Shown piece after piece: positions 19,830 through 44,538 of a DNA stretch of 64,000 bases (its first letter is position 1; each line of letters starts with the position of its first letter). This stretch comes from an uncultured bacterium. GTDB lineage: Bacteria > Babelota > Babeliae > Babelales > Babelaceae. The DNA is taken from NCBI GenBank assembly GCA_963722385.1, contig CAVRKK010000002.1:640001-704000 (forward strand). Reading direction: 5' to 3'. The translations under genes and the position numbers were made by a program. The notes below the pieces were generated by a model. That model was not told the DNA's origin, searched no databases, and saw nothing but the letters and a program-made list of their open reading frames with translations.

Positions 19830-20792
19830 TTACCCTAGGACATCCTTATGCATTTCAGATGGCTGACTCAAGTTAACCGGTACTGAGGTGCTATTGGCGA
19901 GCGAGGGATAGCCCATCTTTTGTCGTAATGCAGGAATAAACCTATCAATATATCGCTCAGTATCCTCAATGTCGTTGCCTAATTGTGCCCACCAGGCAAT
20001 TGCTTCAGGCGAGAGCTTGGCGTTCATGTTCTTTTGTTTTCTCCAAAGCTTTGTTTGATAAAAGTAGTCAACGCTTCTATTAATATAATGGTTGAGCCTC
20101 AACTCGTCCTTTCCCACTTTAACGCCTGGCTTTCCATTCGTGTAGACACATTGATGGCATGGCCATGAAAACTTCTCAAAGAGCTCTGGTTTAAGAATAG
20201 TTTTGAAAACATCAGTATTCATGCGGTTATCAGGCAAGGCAACCATATGCAGCGCCTCTATCATCAAGGTATCAACGGGAAGTTTTTGAATATTAGCAGT
20301 TCCGTAGATATGCCAATATACGTGCACACCAGGTGCTTCATCGTAAGCGGCTAAAACTTCTTGAACGGAGGCAGCTTTTGTTGGAACAAGATACTCATCA
20401 ATATCAATAAACCCAAGCCATTTCGCCTCTTGGCGAGCAGTCTCGCATGCGTGCTGATAGGCGGCTGCCTGCGTATATGTCGAAAAGGGGTATAGCGAGG
20501 TTGAATCAGGAGGTACGCGGGTAGGCCAATCGACAAGCGTAATAATCCCTTGGTCAATATAAGGGGTAAGTATTGTCATGAAGTCATCAGTGCTTATATT
20601 ATTATAAAGGTAGAAGTGCTCTACGCCGACCACAAGATGATACTCGATCCATAGCTTAAGATAAAGCGCTTCGTCCTTAAAAATGCTTGCGACGGCCAAT
20701 TGGTACTTTTTAGGCTGCGCTACCGTTTCTTCAGAAGAATTGATAAAGCCAGCCCAAAAGAATGCAAGGCAAATCGCGTATTTGGAAATCAT
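19830..20792 (-). CDS. Glycosyltransferase family 92-like protein with signal peptide
   Basis: IFKDEALYLKLWIEYH...GVEHFYLYNN, WLGFIDIDEY (DxD), LNHY. Confidence 0.82.
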   Translation of the reverse strand: MISKYAICLAFFWAGFINSSEETVAQPKKYQLAVASIFKDEALYLKLWIEYHLVVGVEHFYLYNNISTDDFMTILTPYIDQGIITLVDWPTRVPPDSTSLYPFSTYTQAAAYQHACETARQEAKWLGFIDIDEYLVPTKAASVQEVLAAYDEAPGVHVYWHIYGTANIQKLPVDTLMIEALHMVALPDNRMNTDVFKTILKPELFEKFSWPCHQCVYTNGKPGVKVGKDELRLNHYINRSVDYFYQTKLWRKQKNMNAKLSPEAIAWWAQLGNDIEDTERYIDRFIPALRQKMGYPSLANSTSVPVNLSQPSEMHKDVLG

Positions 20793-29085: not shown

Positions 29086-30693
29086 CTACCGCTTAATAAA
29101 TCGCGGGTTATGCTCCATATGCGGTGCTGAATTGTTAATCTTAAACAACGGCCTGATGTCCATTTTTAAGCCCGCATTGAACTTGCTTAATAGCTCAACG
29201 GGCGTATAAAGCGCCATGTTGCGGTTTTTGGAATAAGTCTGAACCAAATTGAGTGGGATATTCACGATCTGCGACGTTACGGGGCAAAGTCCGATGAGCG
29301 AAAAGTTGCTAAACTGCTCCCATGTTGCCTCAAGCTCATTAGGCGTATGATATCGAAGCGATTCGAGAGCACCCCTGATATCCCGCTTGCGATACAGTGT
29401 CATATCCAACGTACATATCTGGCGCCACTCTCCTCTACCTGCCATAAACTGCCACGCATAAACCGTAGGCGTAATTTTCAGCAAGGGCGGCGTACCCGTA
29501 TAAGCACCCCTGGGCAACACAGAATAACAATGAGTAATGTTTTTTCCCAAGCGCAAGTAAAAGCCATGGGCACCCGTTAGCTCAAGCAGCATGAGCGCAG
29601 CGTCAAGATCAATCGCATCTTTGATAATAATATCATCAACAGCAAATGCAACATAATCACCAGCTCGCTGATACACTGAGGCAAGCGTCAAAGCCTTAAG
29701 ATCAGCAGCGGTTCGCTGATGATGAAATATGGCTTGAGGGAAGTGCGCCTTCAGCACGTCATAGGCACGCCCGTAGCTGCTATTCGACGTTGCGTAAATA
29801 ACAACAACCTCATAAGCGCCGGTTACGTGTGCATAACAAGACTCAAGGAAGGCATACAATTGTAAGGGGCGATCTTTAGAATAAACAATGAGTCTCGCCT
29901 TCTGCTTGTCGCTCGTGACCGGCTGGGCAAGGGGCTGATACTTTCGCTTTGAGCGAATTAAGCGCTCTTGCTGCTTTTCTTTTTCTGATGGTGCCGGTAC
30001 TGGCGAGTGCTGGATGCAGAGAATATCATCAATAAAGCGATAGTGCTCTTTGCCTGCCATTTCAAGCAAGGGGAAAAGATAGGCTTTCTGAACATTGCCA
30101 TAGAAGTGACCACGGTCTATTAAGTCGCCAAGCTTAATCTGTTTTAAAAGCCAGGCACGACACGTAAACGGCAAACCAATGCACCAAGCTTTATGTGAAC
30201 GGAAAGTATTGTCCTGGTAGATGTTAAGAGGAAAATCTCCAGCGATACGCTTGCCGCTTAAGCCCTTGAGCTGGTAATTGCCGGACGCCGCCCACACCGT
30301 CGAATCTTCATAAAGCTCTGCCAACTGGGCAAGCACATTCTGGTTCGCAAAAATTTGGCCGGGCAACAATATAAGAATAACGCTCTGATCGGGGCAGCTT
30401 AAGCCTGTCGTATAAACGGCCTGTACCAACTCTTGACGGTGGCTATTAGAAGCGACCGTTAAGCAAGATTCATGCTTTTGCATAAAATCCCGGACTTCTT
30501 TAGCCTTTAACGAGCCATTGTTGATAGCGTAAAGGTGCCAGTTGATATAACGCTGATCGGTAAGCGATGCGAGTGTCTCAAAAAGGTCTTCCGATACGAC
30601 AGGTGGAACAATAATTGAAAATTTGCATGAAGCGCCTTGGATAGGCGCCGAGATGAGAGCTAAACAAAAAATAACGTTTTTATATATGCGCAT
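29086..30693 (-). CDS. Two-domain GT-A (GT2-like) glycosyltransferase with signal peptide
   Basis: N-domain resembles the GT2 domain of 39770-40990 (FPLLEMAG vs LPMLEMAG); C-domain has VYSKDRPLQL and FAVDD. Confidence 0.7.
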   Translation of the reverse strand: MRIYKNVIFCLALISAPIQGASCKFSIIVPPVVSEDLFETLASLTDQRYINWHLYAINNGSLKAKEVRDFMQKHESCLTVASNSHRQELVQAVYTTGLSCPDQSVILILLPGQIFANQNVLAQLAELYEDSTVWAASGNYQLKGLSGKRIAGDFPLNIYQDNTFRSHKAWCIGLPFTCRAWLLKQIKLGDLIDRGHFYGNVQKAYLFPLLEMAGKEHYRFIDDILCIQHSPVPAPSEKEKQQERLIRSKRKYQPLAQPVTSDKQKARLIVYSKDRPLQLYAFLESCYAHVTGAYEVVVIYATSNSSYGRAYDVLKAHFPQAIFHHQRTAADLKALTLASVYQRAGDYVAFAVDDIIIKDAIDLDAALMLLELTGAHGFYLRLGKNITHCYSVLPRGAYTGTPPLLKITPTVYAWQFMAGRGEWRQICTLDMTLYRKRDIRGALESLRYHTPNELEATWEQFSNFSLIGLCPVTSQIVNIPLNLVQTYSKNRNMALYTPVELLSKFNAGLKMDIRPLFKINNSAPHMEHNPRFIKR

Positions 30694-31483
30694 TGCTACG
30701 TGGTGCTAAAAGTCCAAGATTGGCGAGCAATTGATCAATTTGATTTTTGTATTGATGATATGGCCGTAACATATGTGAGTCTATGTAGTAGCCAGCCTTG
30801 AGTAATCGTTGATCAAACTGCCATTTTGACCGATCGATGCGCTGGTTGCCCGTCTCATAACCAAGCAGTTTAAGACGATCCGGATAGCCATGCCATTTTC
30901 TTAACAGCCAATAGAGCAGTACTTCATCAGCAGTCCAGCCAATTTTGAATGCATACCACTCTTGGATTTTAGCAGGAATTTCGTCAATAGAGCTTATACC
31001 GAAGATTTCTCTGAAAGTAGCACCCTTTGCCACGTTATAGCAAATGGGATATTGCTTAGCTTTGGTGCCATACGCTCTATCATTAAAAACAACAAAGAAG
31101 TTATCAGGCACATTGCTAATAAGGTTTGTATAATAAACTTTGCTGATAGGCAGCATGTCAATATCAGAAAGAATACATACCTCGTCAGGATAGAGCACGG
31201 GAATAAGAAGGCGGATGATTTGGCTATAAAATGACGAGGGAACTCCAGGCAACGGTGTAAAGCGTATCACGTCGCCGAATGATTCATCAGCAAAAACATC
31301 ATCAGGGGCTATAAGCGCCAATGTTGGCTTTAAACCGATATGCTCTTTCCAAGCTTTGGCAACAATAGGCCAAAACTCAAGGTACATGGGATGAGCGCCA
31401 GCCGATAAGATAACCCGCTCGGGAATAAGCGGATAAATCGACCAAGCAAAGCTTAAAGCGATAAAAAGACAGAGTAAGCGCAT
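30680..31483 (-). CDS. Putative GT-A glycosyltransferase-like protein with signal peptide
   Basis: SQIIRL, ILSDIDMLP (DxD), YPICY, WTADE, IDSHMLRP; cluster context. Confidence 0.55.
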   Translation of the reverse strand: MRLLCLFIALSFAWSIYPLIPERVILSAGAHPMYLEFWPIVAKAWKEHIGLKPTLALIAPDDVFADESFGDVIRFTPLPGVPSSFYSQIIRLLIPVLYPDEVCILSDIDMLPISKVYYTNLISNVPDNFFVVFNDRAYGTKAKQYPICYNVAKGATFREIFGISSIDEIPAKIQEWYAFKIGWTADEVLLYWLLRKWHGYPDRLKLLGYETGNQRIDRSKWQFDQRLLKAGYYIDSHMLRPYHQYKNQIDQLLANLGLLAPRSNAHI

Positions 31484-31626
31484 AACTAACCAGTATTTTG
31501 TTGTTTATAGTAAACGTATATAATCAAACATTTTTTTATCTGTCAAGCAGCTTGTGTGTGCATTCTTGATACAAAAAATATTACGTGGTATAACTTTGCT
31601 AAGCAACTTAAGAGGAGACGATTTTT

Positions 31627-32931
31627 GTGAGAAAAGTATACCGGTTAAGCACCCTGATTTTTTTAGGAATAGTGAGATTCTCTAGCCTCTCTGCAGAAAT
31701 TAAGAGCAACTCGCCCTATGACGTGACAATCGTTGGTTTTATGAAATTTGCTGACGGGTTGGGCAGAATATCGATAGGGATTGCCGATGCATTAAGCAAG
31801 CGCCTGAACGTTAATTTTATTAATACGCGCAAGGACCACACCAGTTTAGATAATCTTTCGCCAGCAGTTCACGCAATTGCAAAAAATGGGGATGCAAGGC
31901 CCGGTAAAATTGCTATTTTTACTGACTGCTTATGGGATATCGCGCGTGACCACTCAGCCGCAGTGCCCGAAACATGTGACATCAAAATTGCCTATTCTAT
32001 GCTTGAATCGAGCAAGCTTCCCCCTCAATGGGTAACTATCCTCAACAGTCGTTTTGATCTCATAATAGTTCCCGACGTTTATCATGTTAGTACCTATCAG
32101 CGATCCGGGGTTACAACCCCCATTATTGTGCTGCCACCCATCTGTTATTTAGAAGAATTTCTCGCGCACCAAAGATCGATCTCGAGCGAAGAATTTATTT
32201 TTGGCAACACCTCAGGTTTGTGGATTCACAAGAACCAGGACGTTCTTATTGAGGCTTTTGCAAAGGCATTTTCTAATGCACCGCGGGTAAAATTGCTCTT
32301 AAATGCCAGAGGCTGTGATCCCGTTCTCTGTGAGCGTATTCGCAAAAAAATAGAAACCGTCAATGCAAATAATATTGAGTTGCAGGTAAAAAATCTTTCT
32401 TGGAAGAATTATATCGACTATATGGCGTCATTAAATGTTTTTATTAGCCTATCTAAGGGTGAAGGCTTTGCTTTTGGCCCACGTGAAAGCCTTTCGCTAG
32501 GTATTCCCGTTATTATATCTGATAATACCGCACATCGCACGCTCTGCAATACACCTTTCGTTTACTCCGTACCGGCACCGATTAGAGAGCCTGCTTATTA
32601 CCCTATATTTGCCAAAGATTGCGGCTTCTTTTTTAATTGCTCCGTTGATGATGCCATTAAAGCTATGTTGGCAGTTTACCATAACTATGAACTATACCGT
32701 AAAAAAGCGTTGATGGGTAGGCATTGGGTAAAGCGTTATCTTATGAAAAATTTATACAAAAAATACCTTAATGTGGTCAGGCCACGCCAGCTTATTTTGG
32801 GAGAAAAAAATGAAGTTACCGATAGGTACCTTATGGTCAACTCGGTTGCCCTTTACCGAAAATATAAAGCACTTGAACCCGATAGCAACATGATCAAGCG
32901 ACCAAAAAAAAGGGGGGTAAAAAAAGAATAA
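31627..32931 (+). CDS. GT4-family glycosyltransferase with signal peptide (paralog 1)
   Basis: KIAYSMLES, HKNQDVLIEAF, SKGEGFAFGPRESLSLGIPVIIS (EX7E). Confidence 0.88.
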   Translation: MRKVYRLSTLIFLGIVRFSSLSAEIKSNSPYDVTIVGFMKFADGLGRISIGIADALSKRLNVNFINTRKDHTSLDNLSPAVHAIAKNGDARPGKIAIFTDCLWDIARDHSAAVPETCDIKIAYSMLESSKLPPQWVTILNSRFDLIIVPDVYHVSTYQRSGVTTPIIVLPPICYLEEFLAHQRSISSEEFIFGNTSGLWIHKNQDVLIEAFAKAFSNAPRVKLLLNARGCDPVLCERIRKKIETVNANNIELQVKNLSWKNYIDYMASLNVFISLSKGEGFAFGPRESLSLGIPVIISDNTAHRTLCNTPFVYSVPAPIREPAYYPIFAKDCGFFFNCSVDDAIKAMLAVYHNYELYRKKALMGRHWVKRYLMKNLYKKYLNVVRPRQLILGEKNEVTDRYLMVNSVALYRKYKALEPDSNMIKRPKKRGVKKE

Positions 32932-33008
32932 CATGGCGGTTTAAAAATTTATTGGCGCCATTAGTAACGAACTTCATTTAATGTAGCTGCAAAGGGAGAA
33001 AGGTAATA

Positions 33009-34133
33009 ATGGGCAGTTTATTTGGGCATAGGCGACCATACCAATTATTGTGTGCTATCTTGCTTATGGTAGGGGTAAGTCTTCCAATAAGCACGCGAAA
33101 AAGTGCCCCATTACTTGTGGGTTTTTGGAGCTCGTGGAATATCCCATGTGGCATAGCCATGTATACCAAGCATGTGAGTACAAACCTGGAGCCGTTGAAT
33201 TGCAAAACTTTTGCCTATAGCCATACGATGCCGTTAGAGCAACTAAAAAAAGCTATTATCAAGGACCGTATACAGGTTTTGAATATACAATATGAAGCAG
33301 GCATAATGCCGCCTCTTAAGATTTATCTTGATTTTGTTAAAACGATAAAGCAGTTTGGTGTAAAGGTGGTTGTCACAATGCACGATGAGCCCGACTTTGC
33401 TCAATCAATTGTGGAAGCAGCTGATTTTACCATATATCACAAGCAACCATATTATGTAAAAGGTTTAAAAAATAAAATTGCTATCTTGCCTATGGGCGTT
33501 CCGGTTTTTACGCCAAGCCTTTCACGACAAGAGATGCGCAAAAAATATGGGTATTCAGACAAGGAAACAATTTTGGTAACAACGGGATTTCTTCTTTTTA
33601 CCAAAGAGCTTGACGTCGTATTGAAATTGCTTGCGCCCCATCTTAAATCGCATCCTACCTATAGACTGCAGCTCTTGAATAGCGCAACGCCACGTAATAT
33701 GCCGATGTGCAAGATTGTCGATCAAAAGATTAAAGCGGTTTTAAATGCCTACAAGTTATGGAGGCAGGTATATTATACGGGAAAGTTTATTCCCCAGGAA
33801 GAATTAAGCGAAAGGATCTGGATGTCCGACTTAGGGTACCAATGGTTTAGTATGAACACGCATGCAAGTTCTGGTGCAGTGCGCGAGTTTATTGCGGCGC
33901 GGCTGCCTGTTGTCGTGCCTCGTTCTTCACATTATCTGAATGTTAACAAAGGGTTGGTTAAAGTAGCACGTGATAAAATTATATTTGTTCGCGAAATTTT
34001 GCAGACACTCGAAAACAAAGAAAAGCTCAAAAGGTTGACTACGCATATAGAGCAAGAATATAATCGCTTGAATTATCAGGCGGTTATACGTCACTATTAT
34101 AATATACTTAAGCAATGCGCAGCAAAAAAATAA
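33009..34133 (+). CDS. GT-B (GT4-like) glycosyltransferase with signal/anchor segment
   Basis: PCGIAMYT, VVVTMHD, TTGFLLFTK, SSGAVREFIAARLPVVV. Confidence 0.75.
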   Translation: MGSLFGHRRPYQLLCAILLMVGVSLPISTRKSAPLLVGFWSSWNIPCGIAMYTKHVSTNLEPLNCKTFAYSHTMPLEQLKKAIIKDRIQVLNIQYEAGIMPPLKIYLDFVKTIKQFGVKVVVTMHDEPDFAQSIVEAADFTIYHKQPYYVKGLKNKIAILPMGVPVFTPSLSRQEMRKKYGYSDKETILVTTGFLLFTKELDVVLKLLAPHLKSHPTYRLQLLNSATPRNMPMCKIVDQKIKAVLNAYKLWRQVYYTGKFIPQEELSERIWMSDLGYQWFSMNTHASSGAVREFIAARLPVVVPRSSHYLNVNKGLVKVARDKIIFVREILQTLENKEKLKRLTTHIEQEYNRLNYQAVIRHYYNILKQCAAKK

Positions 34134-35365
34134 AGATGTTACACAAAATTTTGATATATAAGGTACTTTTTTTGCTTTCGTGCGTGGCATGTGCTACCTA
34201 TGACGTGACCATCGTAAGTTCAGTTATAGGGTTTGCGAATGGTTTAGAACGTGTGCCGCTCATGGTAGCTGATCTTTTAGGGGATAAGCTATCTATCAAT
34301 TTTGTGCCTCCCACTAAAATTGATTTCAAGGATGTACCGGTAAAAGTAGCTCGCTTAATTCGGAACTCTAAACGCCATGCAAGTAAGGTTGCTATCCTTT
34401 TTGATCCCTTATGGTATCCAAATCCGGGAGAAGCCTTTTACAAAAGGGTACCCTATGCACCCATCAAGCTGGCCTATTCTATGATTGAAAGTACGCAAAT
34501 TCCTTCAAAGTGGACGCAAATTCTTAATTCTTCCTTTGACGCCGTTATTGTTCCTGATGCCTGGCTTGTTCCTGTTTATCAAAGGTCAGGTGTCCACATT
34601 CCCATATTTGTCTTGCCGATAGGGCTTTATCTTGATGATTTTTTATCTAAGAGCGTGCCGCTTAGGCCAAACCGTGTTTTTACGTTTGGTTTATCAGCCG
34701 CTGGGGTTCATGGAAAAAACCATGAGTTGCTTATAAATGCTTTTTTAGAAGAGTTTGGTCAGAATAATCCCCATGTTAGGCTAAGATTACACAGCCGCGG
34801 TGGTAGTGAGGTAGAGAAAATTAAAGCATATGTTAAGCGCCTCAAGGTTTCTAACGTCGAGTTTATTCATAAGGTTTTTTCACAAAAAGAATATGTTGAT
34901 TTTATGGCAAGTATCGACTGCTATGTTACGTTATCAATGGGTGAAGGGTATTCAATTACGCCCCGTGAGGCGCTTGCACTTGGCCGGCCTGTCATTATTT
35001 CTGCTAATACGGCGCATCAGACTATTGTGGATGCCGGGTTTGTGCGTGCGGTACCGGCAGCTATTCCCGAAAAGGCTTTTTATTCGGTCTTTGGCAGCAA
35101 CCTTGGCTATAAGTTTAACTGTGACATCAAGCATGTTAAGATGGCTCTCCGTGATGTTTACTCAAATTACGCAAAATATCGGCAAAAGGCTCTGGCTGGC
35201 AGAGGGTGGGTCAAACGCTATAATTATAAAATGCTTGAGTCGTCATATCATATGCTGCTCCGGCCAAGCAAAATAGTACTTGGAAGCACCAACCAAATAA
35301 CGGACACTGCTTTAATAACGACGTCGCGTACCCTCTATAATAAATATAAAAGCATTGGATGCTGA
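34115..35365 (+). CDS. GT4-family glycosyltransferase with signal peptide (paralog 2)
   Basis: KLAYSMIES, KNHELLINAF, SMGEGYSITPREALALGRPVIIS. Confidence 0.88.
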   Translation: MRSKKIKMLHKILIYKVLFLLSCVACATYDVTIVSSVIGFANGLERVPLMVADLLGDKLSINFVPPTKIDFKDVPVKVARLIRNSKRHASKVAILFDPLWYPNPGEAFYKRVPYAPIKLAYSMIESTQIPSKWTQILNSSFDAVIVPDAWLVPVYQRSGVHIPIFVLPIGLYLDDFLSKSVPLRPNRVFTFGLSAAGVHGKNHELLINAFLEEFGQNNPHVRLRLHSRGGSEVEKIKAYVKRLKVSNVEFIHKVFSQKEYVDFMASIDCYVTLSMGEGYSITPREALALGRPVIISANTAHQTIVDAGFVRAVPAAIPEKAFYSVFGSNLGYKFNCDIKHVKMALRDVYSNYAKYRQKALAGRGWVKRYNYKMLESSYHMLLRPSKIVLGSTNQITDTALITTSRTLYNKYKSIGC

Positions 35366-35375
35366 TGAGAAATCT

Positions 35376-36164
35376 TTACCAGTTATGATCTTTTTCATAA
35401 CCAAGGGCGATTAAGACTTCTTCTAATTCACTCTGCTTGAAAAGCGCCTTGTCTTCGGCGGTAAAATGCTTGCGCCAACTGCCTATTTGACCTGCGCGAA
35501 ACGTGACGCCTTGGCCAAAAATATTTTTCAGACACCAGCCCAAACGGTTCGTTGTTAACGGCACTTCTAAATGAGCAGCGATCTTTTTTATTTCCTCTAC
35601 TTGTTTTGCCGTGGAGCCACCGCCCTTTCGACCGACCAAGTTTTCAAAACGAACCGGACAAAAAAGTGGATCATGGATCCATGGTAAAAAGGCAGAATAA
35701 TAGCGTGGGCTAATTTTAGTTATTACATGTTGAATAAGCGGTGATAGCGATTTGCCGGTTACCAGGTGGGCCGGGTAATGTTCTAAAAATGCTGGCTGGT
35801 TGGGAGCATCCTTAAGAACATGGAAGGCGAGCGAGACAACCTGGTCCCGCGGATCGCGATAAATCATGAGCCCCTTAAAGTTATTTTGTTGAAAAAAAGA
35901 AGTTGCCACTGGTGAGTAGACGGTATGGTAAAAATAAAAGCCATTCTTGAAATTCTTAGGTAACGGTGCCTTCATGTTTATAAGGTCTTTCAGGATATTA
36001 ATGCCTGGCCTGCGCGTAAGAAGCTCGAGGCACCTGGTCAAAAGGTGAGTCCCGCATTTAGGTATGGAATTGACAAATATGTTGCCCTTTTTATAGTCAA
36101 ACTTTGCAGCTAAGCTCAACTCCGTAGCGAGTATCATGATGATCAAGTATTTCACGTATTTCAT
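35376..36164 (-). CDS. PAPS-dependent sulfotransferase with signal peptide
   Basis: 5'-PSB motif SIPKCGTHLL, 3'-PB motif RDPRDQVVS, VRFENL, FRAGQIGSW. Confidence 0.9.
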   Translation of the reverse strand: MKYVKYLIIMILATELSLAAKFDYKKGNIFVNSIPKCGTHLLTRCLELLTRRPGINILKDLINMKAPLPKNFKNGFYFYHTVYSPVATSFFQQNNFKGLMIYRDPRDQVVSLAFHVLKDAPNQPAFLEHYPAHLVTGKSLSPLIQHVITKISPRYYSAFLPWIHDPLFCPVRFENLVGRKGGGSTAKQVEEIKKIAAHLEVPLTTNRLGWCLKNIFGQGVTFRAGQIGSWRKHFTAEDKALFKQSELEEVLIALGYEKDHNW

Positions 36165-36321
36165 AGTGTTTCCTATCTGAGAATTGCCTGAAGAAGGTTA
36201 GCATAGGTATAAGCGGTGGGACAATAAAATTGTTTTAATTTATCGATTTAGAAAAAAATGAGAGTTTGATTAGCGAGGATAAATGGTATATATTTTGGGT
36301 AAGTGTTAAAAAGGAGGCCCT

Positions 36322-37101
36322 ATGAATCGTCTGAGTGTTGTATTTTCGATCTTAATAATGACCAGTATCGGCTGCTTGTCATTTCATATACCTGCTCACT
36401 TGGCAGATGAGGCATTTCTCGAGGAGTTTCGCGCTCATCTTGGAGCCTGCACATGGGAACCGCACAAACTTTATAGTGTCTTTACCCAATACGATAAGGA
36501 AAGTTACCTAGTAAATAAAGAAAAATATCTCAAAAAATATCAATCGCTTTACGCCATAGCCAAGACGATAAAGCCGAAAAAAATAATTGAGCTTGGTACC
36601 TCCGCCGGCTCGAGCGCTGATGCCTATATCTCGGGTTCCGGAGCGGCCTATCTAGGCATAGATACTTTTGGTATTGGATATGATGTCGATGACAAGCCGT
36701 GGGATCCGTATAAAATAGCAAACAAGTTATTTAAAGCCAGAAAATTTACTAATTATCGCCTGCTTAATATCAATCTGAGAGCGTTAGCAATGTTGCCAGA
36801 GCTCGCTGATATGGTAGTGGTAGACGCAGCCCATGATTTTGACAATGAGTATCAAGACCTAAAGTTAGCACTAACGGCCAAGCCGCGGTTTATACTCGTT
36901 GATGATATCAATGGTAAAGAGTGTGCTCTGGCGGTGAAAAAATTTATCAACCATGATGTCAAAGGCAGCGTTGAGTCTTTAGCAATAATCGAGTATGAGG
37001 GAAATGGTCTGATTATTAAGCTTAAGGATTCAGGAGCACCTCGATCGCATAAAAAGCATACTAAGTCACCTAAAAAAGCGGTCCCACAGCGAGAATTATG
37101 A
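36322..37101 (+). CDS. Class I SAM-dependent methyltransferase with signal peptide
   Basis: [33 protein letters not shown]. Confidence 0.8.
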
Positions 37102-38271
37102 ATTCAGTTTCTTATAGTTTTTAATATCTTCCTCAACCATAAGTTTTGTTAAAGTATCTAAATCTGTTTTTGGCTTCCAACCAAGTATTCTTTGTGCTTT
37201 AGAAGAATCACCTACGAGATAATCGACGTCGGCAGGACGAAAATTATGGGGATCAATTTTCACCATAATTTCTCCTGAGTTTTTATCAATACCTACCTCG
37301 TCGACTCCCGTTCCTTGCCATTCAATGGTTGTACCGATTTCTGCAAAGGCTCGCTTAACAAAATCGCGAACCTTATGAGTTTTGCCTGTCGCTATAACGT
37401 AGTCCTCCGGCTTTGGCTGCTGGAGCATAAGCCACATGGCTTCAACATAATCGGCAGCATAACCCCAATCACGTGAGGCATCGAGGTTGCCGAGATAGAG
37501 GATATCTTTTTTTCCACAGGAGCGGGCTGCAACGGCACGGCTAATCTTACGTGTCACAAAATTTTCACCCCGGCGAGGAGATTCATGATTAAACAAGATC
37601 CCATTACAAGCAAATATATTATATGATTCACGATAATTAACGGTAATCCAATAGGCATATAACTTGGCGACAGCATAAGGTGAGCGGGGATAAAAGGGAG
37701 TCGTTTCTTTTTGAGGGATCTCTTGTACTTTACCATAAAGCTCGCTCGTCGAAGCTTGGTAAAACCTTGTCTTGTCTTTCAGGCCGAGAGAACGTATTGC
37801 TTCTAATACCCGTAACGTCCCTATTCCATCAACGTCCCCGGTATGCTCGGGCTGATCAAATGAAATACCAACGTCGCTTTGCGCAGCTAGATTATAAATC
37901 TCGTCAGGCCGGATCTTTTGTATCAACTTAACAACATTTGCTGTATCGCTTATGTCGCCATAATGAAGCTTAAAACGATTCGAATTCGAATGGGCACGCG
38001 TCAGATGGTCAATTCGCTGGGTATTAGGTGATGAGCAGCGCCTTGTTACCCCATGTACCTCGTATCCCTTGTTGAGCAAGAATTCGGATAAATAAGATCC
38101 GTCTTGCCCGGTAATTCCCCATATGAGCGCTTTTTTAGGCTGGTGACTACGCGGTTGCTCAGATATGCTTCCTTGTGTATTTTGGGTAAGCATAAAGAAC
38201 CACGAGCATGTGATAGCTATTCCAAACGTCACCATAATAAAAAATTTTCTATTATTGAATATATTGATCAT
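37096..38271 (-). CDS. gmd: GDP-mannose 4,6-dehydratase with N-terminal hydrophobic extension
   Basis: [50 protein letters not shown]. Confidence 0.96.
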
Positions 38272-38471
38272 TTTTCTGCCCCGCTTTACAACAATGCCAC
38301 GCCCTTTGTCGGTTGGATACTATCAAAACGCGCCCACGTTGTAAATATTACCGTTACTATTGAGTGATAAGCTTGATGGTAAAATTTTGAGCAAAAACTT
38401 GTAGCACAACGGCGCCATTTTTGTATAATAGCTTAATTAGTGGAGATTGATAATAAGCGAGGGAAAGCGCA

Positions 38472-39698
38472 GTGGTGAAAAAGTGGTTGCTCGTTATACT
38501 TGTTTCGTTCATTAAAATAAAAGCTGATGTTCCCGAGATAAATATTGTAGGGTTTATCAAGTTTGCCAATGGTTTAGGTAGGGTGACGACCACGTGGATC
38601 GATGCTTTGTCGCCCCATGTTAGAGTTAATTTTATTGATACACGGCCAACCTTTTCAAGTTCCGAAGACGTGCCAAGTTCGGTAAGAGCGATTGTTGATG
38701 GTAGAAAAAAAACTATCAGTAAAAAAGTATCGTTATTGACTGATAATTTATGGGTTCCTAAGCACAAGCACTACGATCGTGTACCTACTTCTTCTATTAA
38801 GCTTGCGTATTCTATGTGTGAATCTACGAAAGCGCCACGGCCCTGGGTTGATGCGCTTAATAAATATTTTGACGCTGTTCTCGTGCCTGATGAATTTTTG
38901 GTCGCTGTATATAAAACATCAGGGGTTCGCATACCTATTTTTGTGGTACCGCTTGCCCTTTATTTAGAAGATTTTCTCGCCCTTCCGCTCAAGCAAGCGG
39001 CGAATACGCCGTTCGTTTTTGGCATTTCAGCTGCTTTATCCCGCAATAAGAACGTATCGCTGTTAATAAAATCATTTGCCGCAGAGTTTGGCAATCGAAA
39101 AGATGTTATGCTGAAAATTCACAGTCCTTGGGAAGGTAATTGCGATGAGGTACGTGCACTGATAAGAAAGCTTAAGCTTAAAAATGTCTCTCTTTCAATA
39201 GGCAAACTTTCATGGAAAGAATACGTTGCATTTATGCGTGGTATCGATTGCTATTGTCTTCTTTCTTTGGGTGAGGGTTTTTCGATCACTGTTCGCGAAG
39301 CGATGGCGATAGGGACGCCCTGTGTCATATCGAATAATACTGCTCATACGACTATTTGCAATACGGGTCTAGTATATGGGGTGCCAGCGCTCCTGCGCCA
39401 AAAATCGGAAGGTGAATTTTACCACGTCGACGTTGGTTATAATTTTAATTGTCGCCTTGATGATGTACGCCAAGCCCTTCGTCATGTCTATCAGCAGTAT
39501 CCCTTGCACCTTGCACGCGCTCAGGAGAGGCGAACATGGGCATCGCACTATCTTATAAAAAATTGTGTGCCCATCTATAGTAATTTTGCACAACCCAAGC
39601 AACTTCGATATGGCACGCAACACAGCGTCGACGAGAGCGGCATCACGACCTCCGGCGCACTATACGAAAAGTACCAGGCTTTGTTAAGCAAAAAATAG
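38472..39698 (+). CDS. GT4-family glycosyltransferase with signal peptide (paralog 3)
   Basis: KLAYSMCES, NKNVSLLIKSF, SLGEGFSITVREAMAIGTPCVIS. Confidence 0.88.
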   Translation: MVKKWLLVILVSFIKIKADVPEINIVGFIKFANGLGRVTTTWIDALSPHVRVNFIDTRPTFSSSEDVPSSVRAIVDGRKKTISKKVSLLTDNLWVPKHKHYDRVPTSSIKLAYSMCESTKAPRPWVDALNKYFDAVLVPDEFLVAVYKTSGVRIPIFVVPLALYLEDFLALPLKQAANTPFVFGISAALSRNKNVSLLIKSFAAEFGNRKDVMLKIHSPWEGNCDEVRALIRKLKLKNVSLSIGKLSWKEYVAFMRGIDCYCLLSLGEGFSITVREAMAIGTPCVISNNTAHTTICNTGLVYGVPALLRQKSEGEFYHVDVGYNFNCRLDDVRQALRHVYQQYPLHLARAQERRTWASHYLIKNCVPIYSNFAQPKQLRYGTQHSVDESGITTSGALYEKYQALLSKK

Positions 39699-39769
39699 GA
39701 AGAAAATGCTTGATAAAATTCGACTCTTGTGCTAATTATCGCTATGATTAAGGCTGCTTTTGAGTTCCC

Positions 39770-40990
39770 TTGCATATTAAGAAATGTGGTATGCTGAAAA
39801 ACTATTTTTATTGGTTATCTATTTTCCTCTTTGGCTGCCTATCTCAGTGTGCTTATCAATGGCTTCCTTATGGTGTTAATGATGAGCATATTTCTACGCT
39901 TATGTACGCAGCACGCCGAGGTGACATAGCTCTCATGGCATCAGCGCTGAATCAAGGTGATGATATTAATGCTATTTCAAAAAGTGGTATGACAGCGCTT
40001 CATTATGCAATAGGATTTGACCAAACAGAAGCTGCGGGCTATCTTATCACCCACGGTGCTCAGGTACATATTCTTGATCAATGGGAAAATACACCCTTGA
40101 GTATGGCACGTGGGCGCAATTTAGATCCTGTCGTCAGGGCGCTCGAAGAAAAGATTTTGTCATCGACCATAGATGGCCGGACAGTTATCGACAGCAATAA
40201 GCATTTTATTATTCTGGTTGCCTCGTTTAACAATGCTCGATGGTATCGGAACAACCTAGATTCGATTTTCATGCAAAAATATCGAAAATATACGGTGATT
40301 TATATGGATGATGTATCGACTGATGGAACTTTTAACCTCGTAAGATCATATTGTGCTCAAAAAAGCGACGCATCAAACATAATTCTCCTTAAAAATAAAA
40401 AGAAAAAGTTCTGCTTGGGTAACTATATATGGGCTATAAAGCGATTTTGCCCAAGAGACGCTATTCTTATCACGCTTGATGGTGATGATTGGTTTGCTGG
40501 AAATGACGTGCTTGCCTATTTAAACGAGGTATACAAAAATCCTGCCATTTGGCTTACCTATGGGGAGTCGGTGACCTACCCAGCTTATGTGAAAACGCCT
40601 CACTGTCGTCCTATTAGTGCGCGTTTATTTGATCAAAAAGGAGCTTTGCGCAGAAAATGTGCCCAAAGAGTTTTTTGGCCAGTTCATCATTGCAGGTCTT
40701 TTTATGGTTGGCTTTTTATGTTGATTGACAAAAAAGATTTCATTGATGCCAATGGGCGCTACTTTACGTTTGCCGAAGATGTTGCGTATATGCTTCCTAT
40801 GCTTGAAATGGCTGGTGCGGCGCACCATAAGTATATTTCAAAAGTTCTTTATGTATATAATCGAGCAAACCCGCTGGTAACGTCACGAACCCGCGGCACT
40901 GATGCGGTCGAGAACAAATTTTTACAGATTTGCCGCAAAGCGCCTTATGATATGCTCAGCGTGCGACCAGGGGACATGACGGCGCAATAA
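39770..40990 (+). CDS. Ankyrin repeat + GT2 glycosyltransferase fusion with signal peptide (ATG start likely 39791)
   Basis: TLMYAA, GMTALHYA and NTPLSMA ankyrin repeats; DDVSTDGT and LDGDDW GT2 motifs. Confidence 0.88.
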   Translation: MHIKKCGMLKNYFYWLSIFLFGCLSQCAYQWLPYGVNDEHISTLMYAARRGDIALMASALNQGDDINAISKSGMTALHYAIGFDQTEAAGYLITHGAQVHILDQWENTPLSMARGRNLDPVVRALEEKILSSTIDGRTVIDSNKHFIILVASFNNARWYRNNLDSIFMQKYRKYTVIYMDDVSTDGTFNLVRSYCAQKSDASNIILLKNKKKKFCLGNYIWAIKRFCPRDAILITLDGDDWFAGNDVLAYLNEVYKNPAIWLTYGESVTYPAYVKTPHCRPISARLFDQKGALRRKCAQRVFWPVHHCRSFYGWLFMLIDKKDFIDANGRYFTFAEDVAYMLPMLEMAGAAHHKYISKVLYVYNRANPLVTSRTRGTDAVENKFLQICRKAPYDMLSVRPGDMTAQ

Positions 40991-41009
40991 AGTAAGCGAA
41001 AGGGCTTAA

Positions 41010-42260
41010 ATGCGATTATTCGTGTGTATTATGATGCTTGCCCACACTTTTTTACTGGTTGGCCACGATGTCAATGTTGTTGGCCTGATTGGTACGGAGT
41101 CTACCTCACCGCTTATTAGCACGACGATTATTGACGTTCTTAAAGACCACTTTTCAGTCAATGTTGTTGCGTCACGAGCACACTTGAGAGACAAGATTAT
41201 ACAAGCAATGTTTAAAAAGGATGTACCTTTTGATGTGCGGCGCGTTTCTCTTAATAGCGCGGTATTTGGCCCCGTTTCACTTCTTACTGATGTCATAGGC
41301 TATAAAGATCAACTTTTTTATAAAAATGTACCTAACACGGTGCTTAAATTGGCTTACTCGATGTTTGAATCTGATCGGTTGCCGCGTATGTGGGTATTGG
41401 CTATCAATCAAGATTTTGATGCGGTCATTGTACCTGATGCTACGTTAGTTGAGATATATCAAAAGTCAGGTGTACGAAAGCCCATCTTTGTTATACCTTT
41501 ACCGGTGTACGTTGAAAAAATGTTGGCAATGCCTGAAAAAAAGCTTGATAGCGGGCCTTTTGTATTTGGTGTATCCGCGGGATTTGCCGAAAGAAAAAAT
41601 TATCATGTATTACTCGAGTCATTTGCTCGCGAGTATAAGAATAGTACTGATGTGGTACTCAAAATTCATGGCAGCTGGGGCGAAAGTCGGCAGATCAGGA
41701 ATAAGATCCGGCAGCTTGGATTGCGTAACGTCCAGCTATTAGAAAGGGTGCTTACACGCGATCAATATACCAACTTTATGCGATCCTTGCATTGTTATAT
41801 ATACCTCTCTATGGGTGAGGGCTATTCATTAACACCCCGCGAAGCTGTGGCATTAGGTGTTCCCTGTATTCTTGCGGATCATACGGTTCACTGTGTGCTT
41901 GGCGGAATACCCAGTATACGCAAAGTGCCAGCGACCACGTGCGTGAAAGCATATTTTTCTGGCAACGAGCATTGCGGCTGCTATCATCAATGCTCGGTAG
42001 ATGCGGTGTGCGAGGCGATGAGGGACATGCGTGCTCATTATGCAGCCTATCTTGAGCAAGCGCAGAAAAGTCGCTCTATTGCTCGGGAGTTTTTGCGCCG
42101 GCATCTGGCGCCACTATTTGTAACGATTATTCGTCCGGAAACGCTGCGGCTTGGAAAAGTAAATATGGTTGAGCCAGGTCAGCTCATCACCAATGATAAA
42201 AAACTTTATAACAAGTATCTTGGCATTAGGCGTCTTGTGAAAAAGCAAAGGAGATCGTGA
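41010..42260 (+). CDS. GT4-family glycosyltransferase with signal peptide (paralog 4)
   Basis: KLAYSMFES, RKNYHVLLESF, SMGEGYSLTPREAVALGVP. Confidence 0.88.
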   Translation: MRLFVCIMMLAHTFLLVGHDVNVVGLIGTESTSPLISTTIIDVLKDHFSVNVVASRAHLRDKIIQAMFKKDVPFDVRRVSLNSAVFGPVSLLTDVIGYKDQLFYKNVPNTVLKLAYSMFESDRLPRMWVLAINQDFDAVIVPDATLVEIYQKSGVRKPIFVIPLPVYVEKMLAMPEKKLDSGPFVFGVSAGFAERKNYHVLLESFAREYKNSTDVVLKIHGSWGESRQIRNKIRQLGLRNVQLLERVLTRDQYTNFMRSLHCYIYLSMGEGYSLTPREAVALGVPCILADHTVHCVLGGIPSIRKVPATTCVKAYFSGNEHCGCYHQCSVDAVCEAMRDMRAHYAAYLEQAQKSRSIAREFLRRHLAPLFVTIIRPETLRLGKVNMVEPGQLITNDKKLYNKYLGIRRLVKKQRRS

Positions 42261-43369
42261 TGGTAAGGAGCAAGATAAAGAGCTCGTTATGGAGTTTTGG
42301 TATTTTTTTGAGTGCTGGTCTCTTGTCGGGCAATGTGCTTAAGCTCAAGCCCGCCAAGAGCAAAGAGCATGCTATGAGTCTGACGCAACCATTCTTGTCA
42401 GAAATCGCTAGCCTTTTTAGTGCGGACACCTTTATTGAGACGGGCACGGCGCGCGGGAGTACGACAGCGGTAGCGCGCAAAGTTTTCAAAACGGTGCATA
42501 CCATCGAGATAAATAAAAAGCTCTTTGATTATGGCAAGAGAAGATTTAGAAAATATGGCAATGTCCATCTGTATCATGGTGATTCGACCCATATTTTACC
42601 CCAAATTCTTCCTGCCATTACGGGTAAGCCTGTATTTTGGCTTGATGGGCATAATAGTCCAGGGATGGGGCAGGGGGCGGTCAATACGCCGTTATTGGAG
42701 GAGCTAGCAATTATTAAGCAATCGGGGATTACCAATGGTATTCTTTTGATTGATGATATTCGCTGTTCGGGGTGGCCGTTGCTTTGGTGGGATATCCTCA
42801 AGAAAAGATTTGGTCCCGGCTGCCAAAATCTTTATAACACTGTCGGTGTGGGGTGGCCATCATTTAGCGAAATTTATGATACTCTACTGGCTATTAATCC
42901 ACATTATACGCTTGCTTTATATGGCGATATCCTCATAGTTTTTGAAAAAAATTGTGGCATTGTGCTGGCTCCTGAGATAGAAGCATGCATGACCAGCTTC
43001 CTATCGTTTACGCACGATATAGCGCTTGAGCATATTCTGGCTGCTGAGCGCCTTATTAGTCAGCTTGACAATGATGGGCTTGCAGCTATTAAGCAGCAGT
43101 TGCAGAATTACGGTCAGCATGAGCATGATGTATATCATGCCCACCTGCATCTTTGGTATGGTCTTTGTTTGCTTTACCGCAATCATAATAGGGAAGCGGA
43201 GAAGCATCTTACGCTTGCTTATGATGCAAGCAATAAGCATTGGAGAATAGCTTGGTATAGGGCGCAGGCAATGAAGGGCCAAGGTAAGGCGGGTGCTGCG
43301 CAGGAAATCCTGAATAAAATAGCGCATGAAATCAGTGGCTTGGAAGAGTTGCCAAGGCGTGCATATTGA
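42257..43369 (+). CDS. SAM-dependent methyltransferase-like domain + C-terminal TPR; signal peptide
   Basis: FIETGT, HTIEIN, YHGDS, FWLDGH, LLIDD; C-terminal helical repeat. Confidence 0.7.
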   Translation: MMVRSKIKSSLWSFGIFLSAGLLSGNVLKLKPAKSKEHAMSLTQPFLSEIASLFSADTFIETGTARGSTTAVARKVFKTVHTIEINKKLFDYGKRRFRKYGNVHLYHGDSTHILPQILPAITGKPVFWLDGHNSPGMGQGAVNTPLLEELAIIKQSGITNGILLIDDIRCSGWPLLWWDILKKRFGPGCQNLYNTVGVGWPSFSEIYDTLLAINPHYTLALYGDILIVFEKNCGIVLAPEIEACMTSFLSFTHDIALEHILAAERLISQLDNDGLAAIKQQLQNYGQHEHDVYHAHLHLWYGLCLLYRNHNREAEKHLTLAYDASNKHWRIAWYRAQAMKGQGKAGAAQEILNKIAHEISGLEELPRRAY

Positions 43370-44538
43370 TACAGCGAGGGACCGTGATACGATACGTTTT
43401 GATCTTGCTCGTGGGCCTACGAGCATTCGCTGTGGACAGTGAGGTATTAAGCAAAAAGGCAGTGGTTTTCGGCATTGCCGGCCAAGATGGTTACTACCTT
43501 GCGAAGTTACTTTTAAGTAAGGGCTATGAGGTACATGGTAGTATGAGGGGTGATGACCAGGAGCTTAGAGCTTCCTTATGCTCGAGTAATCCTGACTGTT
43601 CGCTTAAGCTCATAATCCACCGTGGTGACCTGGCTGATTCAGCCTATATTAAAGAGCTCATGTTCACGGTACTGCCTGATGAGGTATATAATCTGGCAGG
43701 CCAAAGTAACGTGAGTGTTTCTTTTAAGGAGCCGGTTATTACATCGCAGGTCAATGCGTTTGCCGTGCTCACTATGTTGGAGTTGTTACGAGCATTACTC
43801 CCTCACAAGAGCATTAAATTTTTTCAAGCATCAAGCAGTCACATTTTTGGTCTTGCAGGAACCGAGCATATCGTGGATGAAAATTCCCCGTTGAGCGCTC
43901 AATCACCTTATGCGATTACGAAGCTTTACAGCCATCTTATGACCCAGCTTTATCGTCAGGCATATGGGTTATTTGCCGATAATGGGATTTTGTTTAACCA
44001 TGAATCTGAGCGTCGAAGTGCTGATTTTGTATCGCAAAAAATTGTGGAACATGCCGCTGCTTATAGGTTTGGCAAAAAGCAGGTACTCAAGCTCGGCAAT
44101 CTTGATGTCTGTCGTGATTGGGGCTATGCGCCCGACTATGTTCATGCGATGTGGCTTATGTTGCAGCAGGAAGGGCCCGATGATTATGTAATTGCATCGG
44201 GCCACAGCCATTTAGTAAGGGAGTTTGTCGAACGTGCCTATGCTTATGTTAACGTTCACTTAACATGGTCGGGGTCGAATTACGATGAAGTGGGAAGTGA
44301 TAAAGAAACAAATGAAGTTGTGGTTGCTGTCGACGCGGATTTTTTTAGGCCGTCTGAGTCGCCTTGTCTTGTAGGTAATGCTTCTAAAGCAAAAAGGGTA
44401 CTTGGCTGGGAAGCAAAAACTAATTTTACGCAGCTTGTCGCCGTCATGATGGATGCTGAGTTGGCGAGGTATGTATTGGTGCAAGAAGATGGTTTTGCGA
44501 GCGAGCCAATGCTTGCTCGCAATAGTACGCTGCTCTAA
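43366..44538 (+). CDS. gmd: Divergent GDP-mannose 4,6-dehydratase homolog with signal peptide
   Basis: [37 protein letters not shown]; the catalytic segment reads ASSSHIFG. Confidence 0.85.
   Translation: MIQRGTVIRYVLILLVGLRAFAVDSEVLSKKAVVFGIAGQDGYYLAKLLLSKGYEVHGSMRGDDQELRASLCSSNPDCSLKLIIHRGDLADSAYIKELMFTVLPDEVYNLAGQSNVSVSFKEPVITSQVNAFAVLTMLELLRALLPHKSIKFFQASSSHIFGLAGTEHIVDENSPLSAQSPYAITKLYSHLMTQLYRQAYGLFADNGILFNHESERRSADFVSQKIVEHAAAYRFGKKQVLKLGNLDVCRDWGYAPDYVHAMWLMLQQEGPDDYVIASGHSHLVREFVERAYAYVNVHLTWSGSNYDEVGSDKETNEVVVAVDADFFRPSESPCLVGNASKAKRVLGWEAKTNFTQLVAVMMDAELARYVLVQEDGFASEPMLARNSTLL

Follow-up and report, generated by a model that had tools for sequence, protein, structure and literature searches.

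A cluster of 13 genes at positions 29086-44538 of a 64,000-nucleotide stretch of contig CAVRKK010000002.1 (assembly GCA_963722385.1), the whole of which we term the window, encodes glycan-building enzymes that appear to carry short Sec-type leaders. Comparison with homologs in and outside the phylum of this uncultured bacterium, Babelota (Dependentiae), makes it very probable that these enzymes are exported from the cytoplasm. The leader trait itself is real and phylum-wide, while we infer the site and the acceptor. The explanation that we favor, and to which we give about an even chance, is a pathway exported by Sec to the periplasm or cell surface that would be fed by host metabolites and would glycosylate exported Ser/Thr-rich proteins. 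The bacterium is probably an intracellular parasite of protists that runs a glycosylation block outside its own cytoplasm.

Gene content of the cluster

All 13 open reading frames (ORFs) were confirmed. Because they lie on both strands in six blocks they form a cluster and not a single operon; scans for promoters and terminators were at chance (46 against 36.2 +/- 6.6 and 20 against 17.1 +/- 3.9, respectively). Families were assigned by Pfam and NCBIfam profile scans and folds by AlphaFold2 models with Foldseek, together with sequence searches of the PDB. Leaders were called by a rule devised for this analysis, which requires a basic n-region and a best 9-residue Kyte-Doolittle mean of at least 2.2; proteins that pass it are termed tagged. 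The genes, referred to below by their first coordinate, are as follows (SAM, S-adenosylmethionine; PAPS, 3'-phosphoadenosine 5'-phosphosulfate; PSB, phosphosulfate-binding):

29086..30693, minus strand: leader, degenerate GT2-like domain and second GT-A domain (homology, model, Foldseek)
30680..31483, minus strand: leader and GT-A glycosyltransferase of no Pfam family, with invariant DxD (model and Foldseek)
31627..32931, plus strand: leader and GT4 (GT-B), EX7E motif intact (Pfam, above cut-off)
33009..34133, plus strand: leader and probable divergent GT-B, weak (TIGR04157, E 1e-4)
34115..35365, plus strand: leader and GT4 (GT-B), EX7E intact (Pfam, above cut-off)
35376..36164, minus strand: leader and PAPS-dependent sulfotransferase with 5'-PSB-type motif (PF00685, E 2e-7)
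36322..37101, plus strand: leader and probable SAM methyltransferase, by motif only (glycine-rich motif common to 42257)
37096..38271, minus strand: leader and GDP-mannose 4,6-dehydratase (Gmd), Thr-x-Glu and YxxxK intact (TIGR01472)
38472..39698, plus strand: leader and GT4 (GT-B), EX7E intact, of a subfamily shared with environmental chlamydiae (Pfam, above cut-off)
39770..40990, plus strand: leader, ankyrin repeats and GT2 (GT-A) (Pfam)
41010..42260, plus strand: leader and GT4 (GT-B), EX7E intact (Pfam, above cut-off)
42257..43369, plus strand: borderline leader, class I SAM methyltransferase-like domain and possible C-terminal TPR (weak PIMT/RsmA-type matches)
43366..44538, plus strand: leader and Gmd paralog with His replacing the conserved Glu, YxxxK kept (alignment to PDB 2z1m and 7kf3)

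A prior interpretation made from the letters and translations alone (the sequence-only reading) had counted five GT-B glycosyltransferases (GTs). Four of these are GT4 proteins, and the fifth, 33009, depends on its NCBIfam match, having no Pfam match, no EX7E motif and a best PDB match at E 0.91; a tagged paralog of it lies elsewhere in the genome (contig C1:215499-216638). The three proposed GT-A-type proteins are borne out, 39770 by its GT2 match and the others by fold. The AlphaFold2 model of 30680 is a GT-A fold (predicted local distance difference test score, pLDDT, 95.5), with which Foldseek agrees, and the named homologs of this protein are from Candidatus Babeliaceae or Babeliales. The N-terminal half of 29086 resembles the GT2 domain of 39770 (E 9e-11). 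Its C-terminal half has no family match and is modeled as a GT-A fold (pLDDT 96.2), for which the top Foldseek matches are GnT-I, SpsA and POMGnT1; a profile of this domain run against PDB sequences retrieved nothing useful. The architecture of 39770 recurs beside GT4 and Gmd in two other genomes (G008 and G009).

The sulfotransferase call also stands, and this protein has four tagged paralogs elsewhere in the genome. As for the two methyltransferase-like proteins, 42257 shows weak family matches together with a TPR_19 match below cut-off (E 0.0045), and 36322 has its motif but no match in Pfam, NCBIfam or the PDB. Only one of the two supposed Gmd proteins, 37096, passes the family test (TIGR01472, 573.6 bits against a cut-off of 415), whereas 43366 fails it (367 bits) and lacks the conserved Glu. 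The Glu of the Thr-x-Glu motif has a catalytic role in Gmd, and 43366 is possibly a 4-ketoreductase. Catalytic motifs are intact in the four GT4 proteins, the sulfotransferase, 37096, and the ManC and ManB proteins described below. As had been observed, no wzx, wzy, wzm/wzt or priming transferase is found within the cluster by ORF list, Pfam or NCBIfam scans; a WecA/MraY-family paralog and an ABC-2 pair sit elsewhere in the genome, which gave no match to the priming-transferase family PF02397.

Leaders on enzyme classes within and outside the phylum

The genome (G000; 1.6 Mb in two contigs, C1 and C2) is placed in Babelota not by a 16S or marker tree, but because it is reduced, encodes ATP/ADP translocases (three of the TLC family above cut-off), has two secretins (gspD), lacks lipopolysaccharide (LPS) genes (LpxA/B/C/D: none found) and has Babeliales-named homologs. 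As SecY, SecA and signal peptidase I (SPase I) are present, and neither TatC nor FlhA/SctV (FHIPEP) has a match in the genome, Sec is the sole export route to consider.

Twelve of the 13 cluster proteins pass the leader rule and 42257 falls just short of it (2.1), in line with the claim that the whole pathway has export-type N-termini. This exceeds the genome baseline (P ~1e-4), at which 474 of 1240 called genes are tagged at their first start, as are 322 of 804 soluble proteins of at least 150 residues. Since about 40% of the proteome is tagged and other runs of 19, 11 and 11 tagged genes occur, the run alone is weak, not exceptional, evidence; the enzyme classes are the evidence. For class comparisons we used a strict, motif-anchored rule in which the hydrophobic stretch must lie upstream of the catalytic motif, the loose rule having been rejected because of false calls on first β-strands and internal starts in control loci (e.g. 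GT2 6/27 and GT4 6/27).

Under the strict rule, leaders are found on 25 of 46 phylum copies of Gmd as against 0 of 83 copies in 80 outside loci, on 8 of 24 as against 0 of 61 copies of Fcl, and on 3 of 3 as against 0 of 7 copies of Ugd; here the 40 phylum loci were hand-picked from 150 matches listed so as to spread over families, ten motif-less rows (four phylum, six control) and matches below 120 bits were dropped, one positive (L134) is doubtful, negatives in L117 (twice) and L128 look leader-like by eye, and the strict-rule controls cover Gmd, Fcl, Ugd and ManC, not GT2 or GT4. In these enzyme classes the leaders are specific to this phylum; a homolog comparison of this kind had been called for in the sequence-only reading. 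The outside-phylum homologs of 37096 have no leader, their alignment beginning mostly at about residue 45. The tag states of Gmd and Fcl co-vary across 24 loci (8 both, 13 neither, 3 Gmd only and 0 Fcl only, where the tagged copy was counted for L145 and the adjacent untagged one for L116, the truncated L129 being omitted), and on a quick tree of 74 Gmd cores the tag label needs 10 changes, at least 3 of them forced by strong branches. Housekeeping enzymes present a different picture: 69 of 117 E. coli queries have an ortholog in the genome, of which 3 are tagged (ManB, one of two Ndk proteins and UppS).

The leaders also recur in independently called homolog sets, at 35/44, 103/119 (homologs of 30680), 104/113 and 119/149 (homologs of 29086). 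In the GT-A family of 30680 they span a median of 20 residues to the domain, and their character is kept while their sequence is not (top-residue frequency 0.29 as against 0.63 in the core). The -1 residue is Ala, Gly, Ser or Cys in 85% of this family, against a 17% background, and the -3 residue is small in 91%, as scored in the 68 of 120 rows of the GT-A family alone that have both motif and leader; the -3/-1 pattern directly precedes the first core strand of the AlphaFold2 model. Across the homolog sets, 62-66% of proteins have an n-region more basic than the segment following the h-region, and 6-14% have a less basic one. A 19-residue Kyte-Doolittle mean of at least 2.3 is reached in only 4% of the GT-A family and 23% of GT4. 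The homologs from chlamydiae have longer, anchor-like leaders. Purine-rich, ribosome-binding-like sites were read by eye ahead of 7 of the 13 leader starts. In 29086 there is a single start codon within the first 60 codons, and neither it nor 30680 has a start codon between leader and domain; 37096 (Met27) and 43366 (GTG23) have possible downstream starts after the leader.

Supply of donors and cosubstrates

The sequence-only reading had confined tagging to the 13 genes; it also covers ManB, two ManC proteins and 23 of 26 further glycan-related proteins of the genome, picked by similarity. ManB (C1:257254-258771, its leader read from an internal start) is the only phosphohexomutase found, and the second tagged ManC lies at C1:108202-109410. 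GlmU, GalE, a second epimerase, Gnd and three ordinary GT4 proteins are untagged. Genes of the window outside the cluster that bear on the pathway or its export are:

2008..3720, plus strand: type II/IV secretion ATPase, no leader, part of a possible onward export route
12928..14169, plus strand: leader and mannose-1-phosphate guanylyltransferase (ManC-like), supplying GDP-mannose
19830..20792, minus strand: leader and GT92 glycosyltransferase
55301..56599, minus strand: leader and GT28, diglucosyl-diacylglycerol synthase-like

MetK, adenosine 5'-phosphosulfate kinase, ATP sulfurylase and Fcl were not found in this genome, which is 93% complete. The metagenome locus L220 holds a tagged Sat-CysC fusion among sulfotransferases, and it was predicted from it beforehand that cosubstrate synthesis in the phylum would be mostly tagged. 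This was borne out. MetK occurs in 16 of 191 phylum genomes, 11 of 15 motif-bearing rows, or 10 of 14 genes, being tagged; ATP sulfurylase occurs in 10 of 191, with 8 of 9 Sat-CysC-length proteins passing the loose rule, the ninth looking tagged by eye and the strict rule giving 3/3 where the motif matched. Taken with the class, homolog and leader comparisons, these results support the earlier proposal of export to a compartment holding host-derived cosubstrates. The established topology of ATP/ADP translocases, which lie in the inner membrane, would imply host ATP in the periplasm; the lack of a detected MetK argues the same for SAM. Tagged ManB, ManC, MetK and Sat-CysC would fit a space that lacks these enzymes, rather than the host cytosol that has them.

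Other normally cytoplasmic proteins are also tagged in this genome, namely a second Ndk, a thioredoxin reductase-thioredoxin fusion, a Nudix hydrolase and Dps (C2:622460-622996, C2:218785-220224, C2:797035-798246 and window 63089-63718). Three further tagged proteins (C1:184237-185109, C2:613469-615082 and C2:964817-966610), two of them fused to methyltransferases, have a common N-terminal domain without a Pfam match, which we take to resemble GT-A domains of the Anp1/COLGALT type.

Candidate acceptors

The genome encodes three tagged collagen-like Gly-x-Thr proteins (C2:356584-358800, C2:491547-492623 and C2:846910-848262), none with a match to the BclA_C Pfam domain; in the longest, Thr is third in 125 triplets and the next commonest residue in 14. 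It also encodes a tagged GT2-TPR protein (C2:1261503-1262789), whose best PDB matches include SunS and GmaR. SunS and GmaR are protein or peptide glycosyltransferases, and by this likeness the GT2-TPR protein is a candidate priming enzyme. Collagen matches occur in 68 of 191 phylum genomes and GT2-TPR homologs in 66; 59 genomes have both, 9 and 7 have one only and 116 have neither. That the two form a module is well supported by this co-occurrence. Of 20 regions around collagen genes, 7 have tagged glycan enzymes at a distance of no more than 10 kb, compared with 1 of 19 controls (P 0.044); among 41 collagen ORFs, 35 have a leader. Collagen and tagged glycan genes are directly adjacent in G028-G031, G182, G206 and G235, these regions having been picked partly for closeness. 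The connection of the module to the 13 genes is the weakest step of our proposal.

A mostly tagged family of β-propeller proteins with Ser/Thr-rich tails or repeats (e.g. C1:22025-23137, C1:164469-165662 and C2:606669-607940, among others) might possibly provide further acceptors.

A predicted scheme for the pathway

From these observations we propose the following sequence of events. Each enzyme would have a cleavable leader of the Sec/SPase I type, as its N-terminal sequence indicates, and would be exported unfolded through SecYEG. Host mannose-6-phosphate, GTP, NADP(H), SAM, PAPS and UDP-sugars would reach the same space through the LPS-free outer membrane. There the tagged ManB, ManC and Gmd, whose genes are observed, would produce GDP-4-keto-6-deoxymannose. 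As no Fcl was found, either the second Gmd or Gmd itself might reduce this product to a GDP-6-deoxyhexose such as GDP-D-rhamnose. The GT-A and GT4 enzymes would then extend the chain, which might further undergo O-methylation and sulfation. The acceptors, the weakest element, would be the bacterium's own exported Ser/Thr-rich proteins, above all the three collagen-like proteins, primed by the SunS/GmaR-like GT2-TPR protein encoded elsewhere in the genome. Because donors would be made on the acceptor's side of the membrane, no flippase would be needed.

More tentatively, and with less than even confidence, Babelota and some environmental chlamydiae might have turned the periplasm into a Golgi-like compartment, with the synthesis of donors, SAM and PAPS and soluble Leloir glycosyltransferases all Sec-exported, host metabolites crossing the LPS-free outer membrane, and a collagen-like surface nap glycosylated with neither lipid carrier nor flippase. 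If true, bacterial surface glycosylation would have one more topological class, which individual operons would have acquired and lost through the addition of leaders.

Weighing the alternatives

Several observations count against the favored explanation. The collagen-like and GT2-TPR genes are unlinked to the cluster in this genome, and the GT4 subfamily of the cluster does not follow collagen, being found with it in only 11 of 20 genomes (P 0.08). Candidates for a lipid-linked route are present, all of them unlinked to the cluster: a WecA/MraY-family paralog (C2:600600-601616) far below the WecA cut-off, one ABC-2 pair with a DrrA-like ATPase (Wzm was not covered by a genome-wide profile search), and a WecB-like gene. 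Only 1 of 16 scored phylum neighbors has a tagged ManC as against 0 of 18 outside copies, with three motif-less rows dropped, and about half of the phylum Gmd copies and most ManC copies are untagged, sometimes beside tagged GTs; such loci would need donor export, for which the five EamA transporters of this genome might be considered. Several relatives have a Met directly after the leader, allowing leaderless isoforms. Among 32 E. coli proteins the loose rule gives false calls for gnd, wbbK and wzb, all phylum counts treat kin as independent although they are related, and at 93% completeness absences are not proof. That NADP(H) can cross the outer membrane is an assumption. Lastly, the single-copy UppS (C2:1055983-1056795) has an N-terminal hydrophobic anchor that is also present in 10 of 17 scored relatives (loci L355-L384; 13 of 30 had no motif match), nine of them in this family, so that the lineage could add such segments to an enzyme serving its own cell, possibly in a cytoplasmic orientation. 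As Dxr and IspG were not found in this genome, UppS may use host isoprenoids.

The sequence-only reading had placed the pathway in the host cytosol or vacuole, possibly acting on host glycans. This site is possible, but we favor the periplasm or cell surface, which, counting a lipid-primed variant together with the favored explanation, is the reasonably probable location. Onward export by type II secretion into the host vacuole or cytosol, where the enzymes might lay down a matrix enclosing the replication body or modify host glycoconjugates, seems to us rather unlikely. The two secretins, the GspE/F/G-like genes and the lack of a FlhA/SctV match would suit it, as would the statements in passages of PMC4378268 that type II secretion is the only secretion system predicted in Babela and that 79 of 126 ankyrin proteins have signal peptides, and those of PMC4829429 that chlamydial glycogen enzymes work in the inclusion lumen. 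All cosubstrates are plentiful in the host cytosol, and 39770 has an ankyrin fusion; of the ankyrin and TPR fusions earlier read as host-docking devices, the former is present and the latter falls below cut-off, and such fusions do not discriminate between the sites. A host normally makes its own GDP-mannose, SAM and PAPS, and tagged ManB, ManC, MetK and Sat-CysC are easier to explain for a compartment without them. The leaders of the chlamydial homologs, being longer and anchor-like, also fit onward export poorly. A further point comes from a small residue followed by Met-Glu (less often Met-Asp or Met-Gln) just after the leader, which we observed in 72 of 464 soluble tagged proteins of the genome (e.g. 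window 12928-14169 and 56844-58349), with 2 at the control position and 19 among 641 untagged proteins. Cleavage may leave a eukaryote-like Met-Glu N-terminus, and this mark could distinguish host-bound effectors; it occurs in only 1 of 39 glycan-related proteins.

The same export might instead serve to build an LPS substitute in the periplasm on a lipid-linked primer, which would be either undecaprenyl-diphosphate-N-acetylhexosamine from the WecA-like protein or a glycolipid. The WecA/MraY paralog, ABC-2 pair, WecB-like protein, GalE, three leaderless GT4 proteins, the tagged GT28 glycolipid-synthase-like gene of the window and the lack of LpxA/B/C/D are in keeping with this idea, as are the PMT-like proteins and WecB/WecC adjoining gmd in some relatives. 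We consider it improbable, however, given that the genome has no match for Wzx (PF01943, nor for E. coli RfbX, WzxC and WbbH queries), Wzy or PMT, that the candidate genes are unlinked to the cluster, and that the ABC-2 ATPase is closest to DrrA. Still less probable is a cytoplasmic metabolon tethered to the inner membrane, or a set of leaderless enzymes made from downstream starts, with EamA proteins importing host SAM and PAPS. UppS offers a precedent for it, five EamA transporters are available, starts are found after the leaders of 37096, 43366 and several relatives, and the sole phosphohexomutase found is tagged while GlmU is untagged. The shortness of the leaders, the -3/-1 pattern right before the first core strand and a charge bias favoring an N-in/C-out orientation speak against it, 29086 and 30680 have no start that would yield a leaderless form, and a cytoplasmic product would require an exporter. 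That the leaders are chance-hydrophobic extensions of over-long ORFs is very improbable indeed: gene starts were called mechanically and the loose rule does give false positives, but the strict-rule controls for Gmd and Fcl contain no leader at all, four independently called homolog sets retain them, and over half of the leader starts in the cluster have a ribosome-binding-like site.

Relationship to known systems

In textbook bacterial glycan synthesis, nucleotide-sugar chemistry is cytoplasmic and the product crosses the membrane. The Wzx/Wzy, ABC-transporter and synthase-dependent pathways resemble the present system in their ManB, ManC, Gmd, GT2 and GT4 enzymes with intact motifs, but their enzymes stay in the cytoplasm and have no leader (as in the outside Gmd set), and the product is carried across by a flippase or transporter. 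In the present system it is the enzymes that appear to cross, among them the makers of donors and, in relatives, those of SAM and PAPS. Glycosylation of BclA, too, takes place in the cytoplasm, that of the mother cell. BclA exosporium glycoproteins (passages of PMC6947953) share with our candidates a Gly-x-Thr collagen-like protein and, as predicted here, a rhamnose-type O-methylated glycan; in contrast, the acceptor and enzymes in our case would all have Sec-type leaders, and no match to BclA_C was obtained.

The inclusion glycogen of Chlamydia trachomatis, as described in passages of PMC4829429, is likewise a case of an intracellular bacterium that exports sugar enzymes and uses a host nucleotide sugar outside its cytoplasm. 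There, a storage homopolymer is made by enzymes that have no Sec signal peptide and leave by type III secretion, while GlgC, which synthesizes the donor, stays inside; here the leaders are of Sec type, no FlhA/SctV was found, donor synthesis is tagged and a decorated heteroglycan is predicted. With this precedent for host sugar donors outside the cytoplasm, the novelty would lie in the exported-pathway topology, if export is confirmed. Giant viruses also combine parasite-encoded nucleotide-sugar synthesis, GTs, and methyl- and sulfotransferases to make a surface glycan from host metabolites; passages of PMC9614988 and PMC10117803 describe GMD and GMER in chloroviruses, a PBCV-1 GMD that also reduces its product to GDP-D-rhamnose, and Megavirinae fibril clusters that hold a methyltransferase, a sulfotransferase and Sat-CysC. 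Viral enzymes are made in the host cytosol and need no leader, whereas the bacterium must export them.

The known secretome of Babelota agrees with these findings in its Sec/type II character, two gspD genes and lack of LPS genes in Babeliales (passages of PMC6561590, PMC4378268 and PMC4776705). In Chromulinavorax (C. destructans) 44% of proteins have signal peptides, close to the baseline of G000, and this bacterium lies in the host cytoplasm with dense periplasmic material that its authors ascribe to peptidoglycan (passages of PMC6561590); Babela grows in a vacuole with predicted type II secretion (passages of PMC4378268). The secretome passages of these three papers name proteases, nucleases, hydrolases and ankyrins. 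The string 'glycosyl' is absent from the main texts of PMC6561590 and PMC4776705 and appears once in that of PMC4378268, as part of the word glycosylase, though their supplementary signal-peptide tables may list such enzymes, and neither 'glycosyl' nor 'glyco' occurs in the main texts of PMC4776705 and PMC12172432. A full-text literature search, covering titles and the openings of abstracts, with most subscription papers outside its coverage, retrieved no leader-tagged glycan pathway in Babelota or chlamydiae. If true, our proposal would reveal the host metabolites that gain access to an intracellular bacterium's envelope, suggest a replacement for LPS in an LPS-less phylum, and provide a role that can be tested for part of the unexplained ~40% secretome of Babelota, of which cultured members exist.

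Distribution in relatives and further features of the window

In relatives, genes neighboring the pathway add GT6, GT10, GT17, GT23-like, GT32, GT34 and FkbM proteins, mostly tagged among the genes listed, whereas the cluster of L154 is of the conventional kind and comprises an ABC transporter, NeuB and a cytidylyltransferase. A recurring leaderless block adjoins manC-gmd-fcl in L119, L125, L127, L141 and L150, and comprises WecB, a WecC-like dehydrogenase, a Zn-dehydrogenase/Gfo fusion, a PMT-like membrane protein and a GT2 protein like dolichyl-phosphate-mannose synthase. Its composition suggests GT-C priming in other Babelota; apart from the WecB-like gene it is not found in G000. The PMT-like genes that adjoin gmd in relatives are missing from G000, for which a PMT-primed "ER plus Golgi" model was accordingly rejected.

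Of the 191 phylum genomes, 20 have the GT4 subfamily of the cluster, to which proteins named Simkania, Chlamydiales, Chlamydiia and Simkaniaceae also belong, with one each named Anaerolineae and Verrucomicrobia. A scan of IMG/VR with a single Simkania GT4 protein yielded no relative, and in the ESM Atlas phage GT4 clusters are nearest by features. Two loci, L185 and L192, are termed chlamydia-like from gene content only. In the latter a tagged island (L192:6653-12471) lies between ruvA and nth and contains Gmd, a collagen-like protein with a weak BclA_C match, GT34, a methyltransferase and two GT4 proteins, which hints at exchange between Babelota and chlamydiae.

Other features of the window were read from sequence. 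Directly after the cluster lies a leaderless 731-residue tandem double D-Ala-D-Ala ligase-like protein (44992-47187). Upstream of the cluster, the segment 16798-19289 holds a toxin-antitoxin-like small gene pair, a serine-recombinase-like gene and two tRNAs (Glu and Lys), and an integrase-like gene is present near the window end (62067-63032).

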